DNA of 7,079 nt, taken from the NCBI RefSeq assembly GCF_003334305.1, contig NZ_QOWS01000048.1; one strand, written 5' to 3'. Under the pieces are notes generated by a model. It saw nothing but the letters and a program-made list of their open reading frames with translations, did not search any database and was not told the DNA's origin. The DNA is from Escherichia coli (GTDB taxonomy: Bacteria > Pseudomonadota > Gammaproteobacteria > Enterobacterales > Enterobacteriaceae). The position numbers and the translations under genes were made by a program. Of the stretch, positions 1 to 6,657 are shown one piece after another; positions within the stretch are counted from its first letter, which is position 1; each line of letters begins with the position of its first letter.

Positions 1-183
1 TCACGCCTGAAGGGAAAGCTGCACGTTATCAGCAAGCGTTACACTCAGCGCATTGAGCGACATAATCTGAATCTGAGGCAGCACCTGGCACGGCTGGGAC
101 GGAAGTCGCTGTCGTTCTCAAAATCGGTGGAGCTGCATGACAAAGTCATCGGGCATTATCTGAACATAAAACACTATCAATAA
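1..183 (+). CDS. insB: IS1 transposase InsB (InsAB') C-terminal fragment; 5' end outside window
   Basis: Open frame from the window edge to TAA at 181-183; the encoded C-terminus ...[24 protein letters not shown] matches IS1 InsB as I recall it. Confidence 0.85.
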
Positions 184-198
184 GTTGGAGTCATCACC
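176..198. repeat. IS1 right terminal inverted repeat (IRR)
   Basis: atcaataagttggagtcatcacc overlaps the insB stop codon, as in IS1, and is the near-reverse-complement of the IS1 left end GGTGATGCTGCCAACTTACTGAT. Confidence 0.7.
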
Positions 199-3307: not shown

Positions 3308-3651
3308 AATACCTGCCTCTCAAAACGTTAATGACAATACGCGGTAAATAACTGCTGCTCTCTTTTTTAACAGTCGAAATGGGCGATGAGAAATGCAAGG
3401 TTGTACAAGGCGATGCAAGACACGCATGATGCAGCTATGGAACATTCCGCTTATTCACCATAGTGATGATGTATTCTGGTTATCTGACGGAAAAATTTCG
3501 TTTTTTTGGCGAAATGTGATATCAACGTCAATACCGGAAATGAAGGGGTTATGCACAAAACGAATGATAAAGGCCAGGTTGTGCTAATTGAGAACATTAT
3601 TTTTATTGCCGGGATGTTTTATTATGTCTTTGGATTGAAAATACAGGTGCC
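3308..3651. promoter_or_regulatory. Divergent promoter/operator region between the racemase-Dcu operon and the LysR gene
   Basis: 344-bp non-coding gap between divergent start codons. Contains three 10-bp-phased direct repeats (atgcaagg 3393-3400, gtacaagg 3403-3410, atgcaaga 3413-3420), an overlapping ATGC-N7-GCAT dyad (3413-3427) and a TCAC-N4-GTGA dyad (3455-3466) with LysR-type T-N11-A spacing. Confidence 0.5.
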
Positions 3652-4596: not shown

Positions 4597-4613
4597 CGAC
4601 GTGCAATAAATAT

Positions 4614-4637
4614 CCTCCGGCATAGCCGGAGGTTTTT
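4614..4637 (+). terminator. GC-rich hairpin plus T5 tract 18 bp downstream of the lysR stop (probably the IS200 right-end hairpin)
   Basis: CCTCCGGC-ATA-GCCGGAGG perfect stem (4614-4632) followed by TTTTT (4633-4637) has the form of an intrinsic terminator for plus-strand transcripts. By my boundary estimate it lies inside the IS200 right end. Confidence 0.6.
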
Positions 4638-4713
4638 CAAATGCGCCTATAAGGCTCTCTTACCAGCCGCGCCCTAACAGGCGCACACGATCTGACATTT
4701 GCATCCAACTTCG

Positions 4714-5173
4714 TTACTTACGGTCCGTAAACGGGCTGCCCGGACAGGGAATCGATAACTGCTCTCCCATTTTATCCTCTTCAAGCTGGTGCTTTATGTA
4801 ATCCTGTATCTTCGCCGTGTTCTTACCCACTGTATCGACGTAGTCCCCCCTGCACCAGAACTCCCTGTTCCTGTATTTGAATTTCAAATCACCAAACTGC
4901 TCGTAAAGCATCAGACTGCTTTTCCCTTTCAGATATCCCATAAACCCGGATACGCTCATTTTGGGCGGGATCTCCACAAGCATATGGATATGATCTGCAC
5001 AGCATTCAGCTTCCAGAATCCGTACGCTTTTCCACTCACACAGCTTTCTCAAAATACTGCCTGTTGCTCTACGCTTCTCTCTGTAGAACACCTGTCTTCG
5101 GTATTTTGGCGCAAAAAACTATGTGATATTTACAGTTCCATCGGGTGTGCGCTAAGCTCTTTTCGTTCCCCAT
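4714..5173 (-). pseudogene. tnpA: IS200 transposase tnpA (Y1/HuH), apparently frameshifted
   Basis: ATG at 5173 (minus) opens MGNEKSLAHTRWNCKYHIVF, then the frame changes at a T6 run (plus A6 at 5113-5118). The remainder ...FAPKYRRQVFYREKRRATGSILRKLCEWKSVRILEAECCADHIHMLVEIPPKMS...FWCRGDYVDTVGKNTAKIQDYIKHQLEEDKMGEQLSIPCPGSPFTDRK* is in another frame (six-frame ORF 4714-5091). The intact IS200 TnpA as I recall it reads through ...KYHIVFAPKYRRQ..., so this copy appears to carry one extra T. Confidence 0.75.
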
Positions 5174-5179
5174 TGGGAC

Positions 5180-5249
5180 CCCCTTTTGATTTCTTGTTTG
5201 ACACTTGCAGTTGCCAGACCGCAAGGTGTTTTAACAAATCAAAAGGGGT
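5180..5249 (-). promoter_or_regulatory. IS200 5'UTR stem-loop that sequesters the tnpA ribosome-binding site
   Basis: Perfect 13-bp inverted repeat: CCCCUUUUGAUUU pairs with AAAUCAAAAGGGG across a ~44-nt loop on the minus-strand transcript. The 3' arm contains the AAGGGGG Shine-Dalgarno just upstream of the AUG at 5173. Matches the described IS200 nt 69-138 structure. Confidence 0.7.
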
Positions 5250-5283
5250 TTTAATAACTGGCTCAAAGCTGAAAGCTTTCCGG

Positions 5284-5306
5284 AACCCCCAGCCTAGCTG
5301 GGAGTT
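5284..5306 (-). promoter_or_regulatory. IS200 left-end hairpin (described as blocking read-in transcription)
   Basis: Minus-strand AACTCCCAGC-TAG-GCTGGGGGTT forms a 10-bp stem (one G.U pair) with a 3-nt loop, 23 nt in total, at the position expected for the IS200 nt 12-34 hairpin. Confidence 0.55.
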
Positions 5307-5316
5307 TTCTGTGCAC

Positions 5317-5344
5317 AAAAAAACCCTGTAAAAAACTTACAGGG
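5317..5344 (-). terminator. Perfect palindrome plus T7 tract (minus-strand intrinsic terminator) abutting the IS200 left end
   Basis: Minus strand reads CCCTGTAA-GTTTT-TTACAGGG followed by TTTTTTT (plus 5324-5344 stem-loop, plus 5317-5323 A7): an 8-bp perfect stem with a U-tract. Confidence 0.55.
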
Positions 5345-5942
5345 GTATAAGGCTTAGCCTAACTTGCGTCTGTTGCATGGTGCCGGGTGCCTCCCGGTGA
5401 ATTCAGTCGGTGTCACTGAACCCGCGTAGGCTTCGCTCATAACATAATAAATGCTATGTACACCAGTCGCCCCACCGCACAGGGGGATTCACCACACGGC
5501 GCACTTTTTAACAAATATCCCTCCGGCCAGACAATAATAAACATAATGAATTGTGATCTTCTTAACAGTTTTAAAGTGTTACAGATAACATGCCAAGTAA
5601 TTGCTTGTTTTTTCATCAATAGGAAGACCACACCAACAACCCCAGCTATCAGCCAGAACCGACATTATCCGGCTGATAAAATCTACCATCACTCCAACAC
5701 CAATCACCGCCTGTGCCAGATCGCGTTTCTCAAACTTTTTAATCTCTGTTGCCACTCTGCGGGTTTTCTTTTTGAATTTTGAAAATACCAAATATCGTGA
5801 CGTTTCTTTGGGGGATGAGCTATCAAGCGGGAACGATCTGCCTACAGAGAAAGTCAGCCAGACCACTCTGCAAATTATCCCCGAAAGGCTCTGTGGCTGA
5901 TATGCGCCGGGCATGGCGCAATGGGCCAGTGGCAGTGTGTGA

Positions 5943-6015
5943 TGGTGGCCCTTACTGGATTTGAACCAGCGACCAAGCGATTATGAGTCCTCTTACCACT
6001 GAGCTAAAGGGTTGG
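5943..6015 (-). tRNA. Degenerate tRNA(CAU)-like sequence resembling tRNA-Ile2 (ileX/ileY-like); probable pseudogene or attachment-site relic
   Basis: Minus strand reads AACCCTTTAGCTCAGTGGTAAGAGGACTCATAATCGCTTGGTCGCTGGTTCAAATCCAGTAAGGGCCACCA. The T-arm, variable loop, CTCATAA anticodon loop (CAT) and 3' acceptor-CCA are recognisable and resemble E. coli tRNA-Ile2 as I recall it. However ~5 nt are missing at the D-stem/anticodon-stem junction, and the first two acceptor-stem positions (AA instead of GG) cannot pair with the 3' strand. Confidence 0.55.
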
Positions 6016-6279
6016 AGAACGCAATATCACCTGTCTTATATGATTACACCCAGAATTTCCCGGACTGTCTTGTCAAAACATTCAGTCTCCAATTCCCACC
6101 AATAGCAAGACGGTCACTATGACAGCATCTCCGGAATGAGCTCAGGGCACGGGGGTTTACCGAGGTTACTTTTCCAACGAAGTTTCTCAAACGCAGGCGT
6201 GACAGATAACATTCAAACTTAGGATCTCAGTTGCTATCTTTTCCCATGTCTTACGGATTAATGTCATCGGTTGCATACA

Positions 6280-6657
6280 AATCGCTACAAGCTGCATCAA
6301 GGCACATGCTTCATATGTACAGTACACCAAGATGGATAGGTGTTTCACCTAATCCTAGCTCATTTCAGGCAGGCTCAACAGGCTGCAGCCCGCATGTTTA
6401 AGGGCGCAGGTTATCAGCAGGTTATAAGCTGACCGGATACATTCCGGCAAAGAAAAACCTTGCAGCGATGAAAGCCGTTTCGGTAATGCAATGACGATAA
6501 AGCTGTCCTGTATATATGTGCTTCGCCTCAAACGCTTGCCGTTTTGGTATTGTGCACATGCCGTCTGAACGATGTGGAGCCAGAAAAATGGATGCGTTAT
6601 GTCATTGAGCATATCTAGGACTGGCCGGCAAACCGGGTACACGATCTGTTGCTCTAA
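6280..6657 (+). pseudogene. IS66-family transposase (TnpC) C-terminal remnant, degraded
   Basis: Frame-1 translation 6487-6657 gives ...AVLVLCTCRLNDVEPEKWMRYVIEHI*DWPANRVHDLLL*, which resembles the conserved IS66 TnpC C-terminus (...LIGTCKLNDVDPE.YLRHVL..IADWPVNRVSELLPW) as I recall it, but with an in-frame TAG at 6616-6618. Upstream similarity (e.g. CIKAHA at ~6290-6307, where CWAHARRK would be expected) is weak and needs frame changes. Possible element terminus GCGCTTAC at 6756-6763 or 6704-6711 (reverse complement GTAAGCG...). Confidence 0.45.

Follow-up and report, generated by a model that had tools for sequence, protein, structure and literature searches.

The 598-bp interval at positions 5345-5942 of the window (by which we mean the entire 7,079-nucleotide stretch of Escherichia coli DNA analyzed here) lies between an IS200 element (4605-5312) and a tRNA relic (5946-6013; 30.7 bits with the Rfam tRNA model against a threshold of 29). 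An earlier note on this DNA had described the interval as free of assignable genes. Its placement between IS200 and tRNA was confirmed, as were its coordinates and the two open reading frames (ORFs) it named, one of 111 amino acids on the minus strand (5579-5914) and one of 108 amino acids on the plus strand (5456-5782). Its statement that all six frames carry ORFs of 60 to 110 codons did not hold, since only five of the six reach 60 codons or more. The ORF pattern is not beyond chance. Four open stretches of at least 60 amino acids were observed, compared to 2.0 ± 1.2 in shuffled sequence (2000 shuffles; P = 0.10), and the longest open stretch spans 120 codons, compared to a shuffle mean of 81 (P = 0.045).

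The 111-amino-acid ORF was also said to be without recognizable motifs, and here the database searches gave a different answer. Residues 44-77 correspond to positions 2-35 of 143 in PHROG family phrog_632 (“tellurite resistance”; E = 9.5e-8), residues 70-89 correspond to positions 13-32 of 54 in phrog_1470 (“TciB-like”; E = 2.2e-6), and the Pfam family DUF3927 matches the same ORF (positions 14-31 of 53; E = 4e-4). None of the region's five ORFs matched a family in NCBIfam, and the four ORFs besides the 111-amino-acid one found no match among the PHROGs. These four were dropped as coding candidates, having no PHROG or NCBIfam match and no conservation in the diverged strain RM10410 (see below). 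Using Rfam models, protein families, and alignments to intact phage copies, we arrived at the following features, all on the minus strand and listed in the direction of that strand.

5946..6013, minus strand: relic of an ileZ-type phage cargo tRNA with anticodon CAU (Rfam tRNA model and alignment to intact ileZ)
5797..5919, minus strand: decayed tciA leader RNA (mapped onto the phage JLK-2012 reference; helix P0 starts at 5919 and helix P3 ends at 5813)
5702..5795, minus strand: tciA' remnant, comprising ~30 codons from the 5′ end of a gene for a TerB-like “tellurite resistance” protein (alignment to intact tciA and PHROG match)
5579..5701, minus strand: 'tciB remnant (DUF3927), from about codon 16 of a 54-amino-acid membrane protein (PHROG, Pfam, and alignment)
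5505..5534, minus strand: promoter-like element of the small RNA (conserved across STnc100 copies)
5313..5527, minus strand: STnc100-family small-RNA gene (Rfam RF02076), full length with an intrinsic terminator (cmscan)
4605..5312, minus strand: IS200, 708 bp, with a frameshifted tnpA according to RefSeq (ends by alignment to the IS200 of RM10410)

The tRNA relic aligns along the whole of ileZ, from the ileZ-argN-argO cluster of Stx and other lambdoid phages, and retains the CAU anticodon and an identical T arm. Compared to intact ileZ from prophage MS8320 and phage Evi, however, it has a 5-nucleotide deletion in the anticodon arm and an altered 5′ acceptor strand. Its anticodon stem is unpaired, no complete cloverleaf can be drawn, and ARAGORN recognized no tRNA at this position. 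Relative to intact cassettes, argN and argO have been deleted along with their terminator, so that the tRNA relic meets the tciA leader after ~30 nucleotides.

A tRNA-like sequence at one edge, in a neighborhood rich in mobile-element fragments, might instead mark the decayed end of an integrative island with a tRNA attachment site, in which case the ORFs would be the remains of an integrase. We consider this reading extremely improbable. The relic aligns to a cargo ileZ that lies between Q and tciA in intact phages, with strand and order as in the window, and the five ORFs match no PHROG or NCBIfam family except the TciA-like and TciB-like PHROGs. Furthermore, the interval from the tRNA to IS200 is fully covered by the leader, tciA', 'tciB, and STnc100. 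The suggestion of a degraded integrase or cargo gene therefore loses its first half and keeps its second, as the only protein gene left here is a tciA'-'tciB fusion. Judged by its alignment, the tRNA relic is a phage-borne cargo tRNA and not an attachment site.

We aligned the tciA remnant with intact tciA of MS8320, Evi, and JLK-2012, whose proteins are 143 amino acids long, and with RM10410. The ATG start codon has become ATA (5795-5793), and the Shine-Dalgarno sequence at ~5806 now reads AAAGAAA, compared to AAAGGAA in intact copies. A 7-bp tandem duplication of TTCAAAA at ~5770-5783 is absent in RM10410. Around codon 30 (…GCGGTGATT, ending at 5702), tciA runs in frame into tciB at about codon 16 (GGTGTTGGAGTGATGGTAGAT…). 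This fusion was made by a deletion of ~390 bp that is common to the window and RM10410. The N terminus of 'tciB is deleted, and its 3′ part is shortened, with the C-terminal portion frameshifted. The window holds neither a complete ORF of ~143 amino acids with a TerB domain (TciA/TerB; PHROG 632 and Pfam PF05099) nor a complete ORF of ~54 amino acids with its own start and both hydrophobic segments (TciB/DUF3927; PHROG 1470 and PF13064). Given the deletion and the frameshift, the 111-amino-acid ORF is an accidental chimera which, as aligned, begins in the former leader, takes in tciA' and 'tciB, and stops out of frame.

For comparison with related genomes, which the earlier note had called for, complete E. 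coli genomes were searched by megablast. The 598 bp were found at 100% identity in many strains. Most genomes with the island are ~100% identical, which means that this conservation mostly reflects recent ancestry. The record matched to the window for annotation was Ecol_AZ159 (L212). In identical genomes, RefSeq places a pseudogene here, named “DUF3927 domain-containing protein” or “tellurite resistance protein” and flagged as incomplete; the DUF3927 pseudogene is the only record for the region, and the small RNA is unlisted. RM10410 (L005) was the single diverged orthologue used for comparison of the relic. It has this relic in the corresponding chromosomal location, adjoining aldose-epimerase, fucP, and rbsK genes. 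In RM10410, the 111-amino-acid ORF is broken into pieces of 67 and 54 amino acids in different frames, and the 108-amino-acid plus-strand ORF is shortened to 41 amino acids. Since the long ORFs are not conserved in RM10410, none of them is a gene. The description of the region as noncoding or decayed sequence was thus well founded, with the relic shared by RM10410 and both long ORFs disrupted there. It was equally right that no intact gene could be assigned among the protein and tRNA genes: tciA, tciB, and the tRNA are all broken, and the complete unit is the STnc100 small-RNA gene. The protein-coding and tRNA parts are most likely without function.

It could be argued that the 111-amino-acid ORF (5914-5579) now encodes a novel, functional small protein of chimeric origin, its TerB N terminus joined to a TciB membrane segment. 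The tciA'-'tciB junction is in frame and open for 111 codons, and the longest open stretch slightly exceeds that of the shuffles (P = 0.045, as above). Still, we find such a protein very unlikely. Its first 43 codons derive from the former untranslated leader, no Shine-Dalgarno sequence was seen by eye before the ATG at 5914, and the original Shine-Dalgarno sequence and start codon are mutated. The ORF owes its existence to the 7-bp duplication, as RM10410, which is without the duplication, gives the 67- and 54-amino-acid ORFs instead. In addition, the C-terminal half of TciB is frameshifted, and the locus is a pseudogene according to PGAP.

In intact phages, the order of this module is the Q antiterminator, the tRNAs (ileZ argN argO), a structured leader, tciA, tciB, STnc100, a nanS-p esterase, and the lysis genes. 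Phage JLK-2012, phage Evi, and the E. coli MS8320 prophage all show this arrangement on a single strand. In all three, a tciA of 143 amino acids and a tciB of 54 to 55 amino acids are followed by one or two STnc100 copies and then by a nanS-p esterase or a holin. STnc100 begins 10 to 70 nucleotides past the tciB stop codon in 20 of 20 diverse IMG/VR tciA loci, with scores of 103 to 166 bits. The window has the order and strand of the intact phages (tRNA relic, tciA', 'tciB, and STnc100). STnc100 therefore sits in its prophage late-region context, with neighbors that here are relics. Set against the tciA-tciB cassette of lambdoid phages and jumbo Machinavirus phages, the window agrees in gene order, strand, and proximity to a tRNA, and its sequence shows homology to tciA over the first ~30 codons and to tciB over codons ~16-32. 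It differs from the intact cassette in that the two genes are fused by the ~390-bp deletion, startless, and frameshifted, leaving a pseudogene. Going by gene names, the tciA-tciB cassette is presumably also that of phage P1.

Another set of phage RNAs shares this neighborhood. The anti-sRNAs AgvB and AsxR of enterohemorrhagic E. coli (EHEC) prophages are found in the same intergenic position, directly downstream of STnc100 in several phage loci. They differ from STnc100 in lying on the opposite strand and in belonging to unrelated families. In the window, IS200 fills their place, and Rfam gave no AgvB or AsxR match within the window. As a side observation, AgvB/AsxR were seen antisense to STnc100, convergent with it and nearly touching it, in L020 (2294-2355), L025, L035, L062, and L008 (2854-2906).

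From these comparisons, the minus strand from 6013 to 5313 is very probably the ~700-bp remnant of a lambdoid late-region cargo (“moron”) module, of which only STnc100 is intact and, most likely, still active. All components of the relic are already known, and the stretch is fully explained by known kinds of elements; the identity of each part is established at the level of sequence comparison.

The suspicion that the region could encode a small RNA was borne out by a complete STnc100-family gene on the minus strand (5527-5313). By cmscan, this copy scores 136.4 bits (threshold, 47; E = 7.4e-31) and covers model positions 1-206 of 206. It exceeds the gathering threshold over the whole model and ends in a Rho-independent terminator, a stem-loop of 9 pairs (5344-5324) followed by TTTTTTT, which aligns to the terminator stem of the model. 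With the family it shares the multistem core (GGUGAAUCCCCC…, ACCGGGAGGCACCCGG, and CACCAUGC), the terminator, and the position and strand after tciB. The window copy itself lies outside any prophage, without Q, the late promoter, or lysis genes, and with IS200 abutting its terminator. Its variable internal hairpins and preterminator segment are unlike those of the aligned phage and prophage copies. Folded alone, the copy has unremarkable stability (z = −1.67), so the structural claim rests on the Rfam model.

Two further observations were made on the core of this RNA. The segment at 5373-5407 (TTGCATGGTGCCGGGTGCCTCCCGGTGAATTCAGT, 32 to 35 nucleotides) recurs at 100% identity among weaker matches, where it lies under spurious “hypothetical protein” calls. 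In APEC O1, the prophage with the TTGCATGGTGCCGGGTGCCTCCCGGTGAATTCAGT core has no tciAB, and the core is flanked there by the ileZ-argN-argO tRNAs and a nanS-p fragment.

While inspecting the STnc100 copies, we identified a promoter-like element with a −35 hexamer of TTGTCT (5534-5529), an 18-nucleotide spacer ending in TGT, and a −10 hexamer of TAAAAA (5510-5505). The pattern TTGnnn-N17/18-(TGn)TAAAA(A/G) was present at the same place in every STnc100 copy examined, just upstream of the GGUGAAUCCCCC core. A consensus promoter scan reported nothing on the minus strand; that scan demands T at the last −10 position, which TAAAAA does not have. We infer from its conservation that TTGTCT-N18-TAAAAA acts as the promoter. 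Transcription would then start near 5498 and yield an RNA of ~185 nucleotides (~5498 to 5316). With Q and the upstream late promoter absent, expression depends on this element and its weak −10 hexamer (TAAAAA). Having all model positions, the terminator, and the promoter-like element, the STnc100 copy is the only intact unit of the relic. Most likely, the gene still functions autonomously, served by a promoter and a terminator of its own.

Earlier work shows that members of this family are expressed in EHEC. In EDL933, 11 STnc100 copies are transcribed, one of which was confirmed by Northern blotting (PMC5331693). RpoD binding has been reported at STnc100 promoters in Salmonella LT2 (PMC10794520), and STEC outer-membrane vesicles were found to contain the family (PMC12370729). 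The Hfq-binding small RNA EcOnc27/sRNA103 overlaps an STnc100 copy downstream of stx2B (PMC12711010), and its overexpression is cited in that article as having raised fimZ and espA transcripts. The family literature consulted does not establish the targets or molecular function of STnc100. Since EcOnc27/sRNA103 overlaps STnc100 and is reported to bind Hfq, the likely role of the family is that of an Hfq-associated trans-acting regulator. STnc100 has also been described as prophage borne and structurally related to EPEC PasD, with a common lambdoid-prophage origin (bioRxiv 10.64898/2026.05.13.724894). Compared by description in the same source, PasD1 and PasD2 of EPEC E2348/69 are reported structural relatives of STnc100; PasD is typically flanked by Q and lpxR, neither of which is in the window, and its seed region is said to differ.

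The strongest challenge to an active STnc100 gene is that the whole 600 bp, small RNA included, is inert debris, and that the RNA gene is untranscribed and has merely escaped disabling mutations so far. All surroundings of STnc100 are decayed, Q and the late promoter are missing, the scan found no consensus sigma-70 promoter on the minus strand, and the near identity among carriers reflects recent ancestry. The difference in divergence between the small RNA and its flanks points to slower change in the RNA but is no better than suggestive, coming from one diverged orthologue and falling short of significance at 0.05. STnc100 is 98.1% identical to its RM10410 counterpart, compared to 91 to 97% for the flanking relic segments, and the mismatch counts are 4 of 215 positions for STnc100 and 24 of 486 for the rest of the relic (Fisher P = 0.06, which is marginal). 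On the other hand, the copy matches the model over its full length with a score typical of those in functional phages (104 to 165 bits), and neither its terminator nor the promoter-like element that the copies have in common is damaged. Moreover, over the same few hundred bases the neighbors have gained two deletions, a duplication, a frameshift, and the loss of a start codon, while the small RNA has gained none of these. We therefore judge inert debris to be an unlikely account of the small RNA, though one that carries real weight, and favor an STnc100 gene that is still active. That this orphan STnc100 has been domesticated by the host is a weaker proposition than that of a new leader RNA, discussed below.

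The left end of IS200 abuts …TTTTTTTGTGC, the tail of the small-RNA terminator, at the 5312/5313 junction and leaves the terminator unbroken. Rfam STnc490, the IS200 5′ UTR, matches at 5306-5183 with 143 bits. In RM10410, the orthologue of the window's STnc100 is uninterrupted (…TTTTTTTATGTGC|GTCGGG…), but a different IS200 variant occupies the same relative position past another STnc100 copy (…TTTTTTGTGC|ATAGAAC…, L005 ~3521-3524). IS200 left ends thus abut …T(6-7)GTGC directly after the terminators of two different STnc100 copies. Because the two variants differ in sequence, the insertions look independent, and two independent insertions at the same spot would suggest a target preference. 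We also considered whether the window small RNA arose by recombination between two STnc100 copies in an RM10410-like ancestor; such an origin would account for the adjoining IS200. This was rejected, since the match between the window copy and RM10410 copy 1 extends as far as the T tract and the two IS200 elements differ in sequence.

Several other features of the neighborhood were recorded. In RM10410, the island (L005 2403-5000) is less reduced. Three STnc100 copies lie there (5000-4783, 3734-3524, and 2613-2403), accompanied by a D1-D4 fragment of a group II intron (4659-4490) and by an IS200 whose tnpA is intact. At the other end of the window's IS200, a hairpin (CCTCCGGCATAGCCGGAGG) with a T run at 4605-4640 lies 8 to 40 nucleotides past the stop codon of the LysR-type “hypT” gene and resembles a hypT terminator. 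The CCTCCGGCATAGCCGGAGG hairpin is the right end of IS200, as it is common to the RM10410 IS200 in a different context. The surroundings of the relic within the window (1-190, 268-981, and 6120-6410) are a patchwork of mobile elements that includes an IS1 tail and a truncated IS600 orfB. According to annotation, the related strains L001 and L002 have a P2-type replication-endonuclease fragment as well as IS21 and IS66 pieces.

In our reading, the cargo module is now alone in an E. coli chromosomal island of mobile-element debris. Its tRNA is broken and argN and argO are lost, the tciA start codon has disappeared, and the ~390-bp deletion has fused tciA to tciB, with a frameshift after it. IS200 would have landed later, directly past the terminator tail, without damage to the small RNA. 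Under this model, the STnc100 copy would still be transcribed from its own promoter, and its RNA may act as an Hfq-associated trans-acting regulator, like its relatives.

The window also holds the remains of a second RNA element, the leader of tciA. Among intact phages, the ~130 nucleotides from the preceding terminator to the tciA start show strong conservation in 77 of 80 IMG/VR loci, irrespective of the upstream sequence. Intact leaders are located at L003:4790-4941 (minus strand), L006:4653-4804 (minus strand), L087:1449-1595, and L088:1454-1600. BLAST with the leader also hits the tciA-tciB cassette of 240-kb Machinavirus jumbo phages of Erwinia and Salmonella, in which the cassette lies past a tRNA gene. 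The leader is conserved, with compensatory changes, in lambdoid phages of E. coli, Klebsiella, and Actinobacillus as well as in the Erwinia and Salmonella jumbo phages. A pattern search returned ~90 distinct sequences, many of them closely related; the pattern fixes two conserved strings. A divergent leader in L147 (1145-1299, minus strand), with P1 and P2 fully compensated, precedes an unrelated 50-amino-acid Cys-rich ORF, which implies that the leader behaves as a portable module.

Our model of the leader comprises five helices: a P0 hairpin, a pseudoknot that joins the P0 loop to a segment farther downstream (PK), a P1 pseudoknot helix, and nested P2 and P3, with P3 ending 5 nucleotides ahead of the Shine-Dalgarno sequence. 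We tested this model on an alignment of 65 sequences (A3). In the alignment, 94.2% of cells pair, compared to 34 to 51% with the partners slid, and 11 pairs are changed on both sides, compared to 5.9 ± 1.6 in shuffled alignments (0 of 500 shuffles reach 11). Four of the five P0 pairs covary. The P0 loop CGCCC pairs with a downstream GGGCG, one pair of which is split evenly between C-G and U-A (31 sequences each), and the corresponding pseudoknot in jumbo phage L153 is GGCUC/GAGCC. P1 pairs in 99.8% of cells while its sequence changes from CCACAGAG/CUCUGUGG to CCGUAGAG/CUCUACGG in jumbo phages and CCAUGGAG/CUCCAUGG in L151. P2 pairs in 85% of cells and has a local hairpin as a competitor, and P3 is invariant, which is partly forced by the search pattern. 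RNAalifold alone recovers P0 and P1. The leader of intact phages is, on this evidence of covariation, a pseudoknotted RNA.

Mapped onto the JLK-2012 reference, the window leader keeps 29 of 35 pairs (P0, 5 of 5; PK, 3 of 5; P1, 7 of 8; P3, 6 of 8; and P2, 8 of 9). The GGGCG partner has been lost, as have the Shine-Dalgarno sequence and the start codon. The window leader is evidently a relic of the element and not a working copy.

No family in Rfam 15 matches the leader, even at E values up to 10, and a search of the literature on tciA/tciB and DUF3927 found nothing on it. An HDV-like ribozyme was considered and discarded, given that the strand order a b c a' c' b' misfits the HDV topology and that no Rfam ribozyme or riboswitch matches. 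We regard it as quite possible, if somewhat short of probable, that the tciA leader is a real, structured, and previously undescribed RNA. It could act as a phage-borne cis-regulatory RNA, either riboswitch-like or a translational operator, that controls a TerB-type gene. As a candidate for a new class of structured RNA, the leader may matter more than the result for the window itself.

For the region itself, the outcome is mainly a clean annotation, in which a stretch that looked unassignable is explained by known parts. Annotation in the style of RefSeq misses the sole element that is probably functional, the small RNA. Taken together, we believe that this locus offers a small example of a general pattern in which, as a prophage decays, a short regulatory RNA gene equipped with a promoter and terminator of its own can survive longer than the neighboring protein genes. 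Prophage small RNAs can then persist in strains without the phage.
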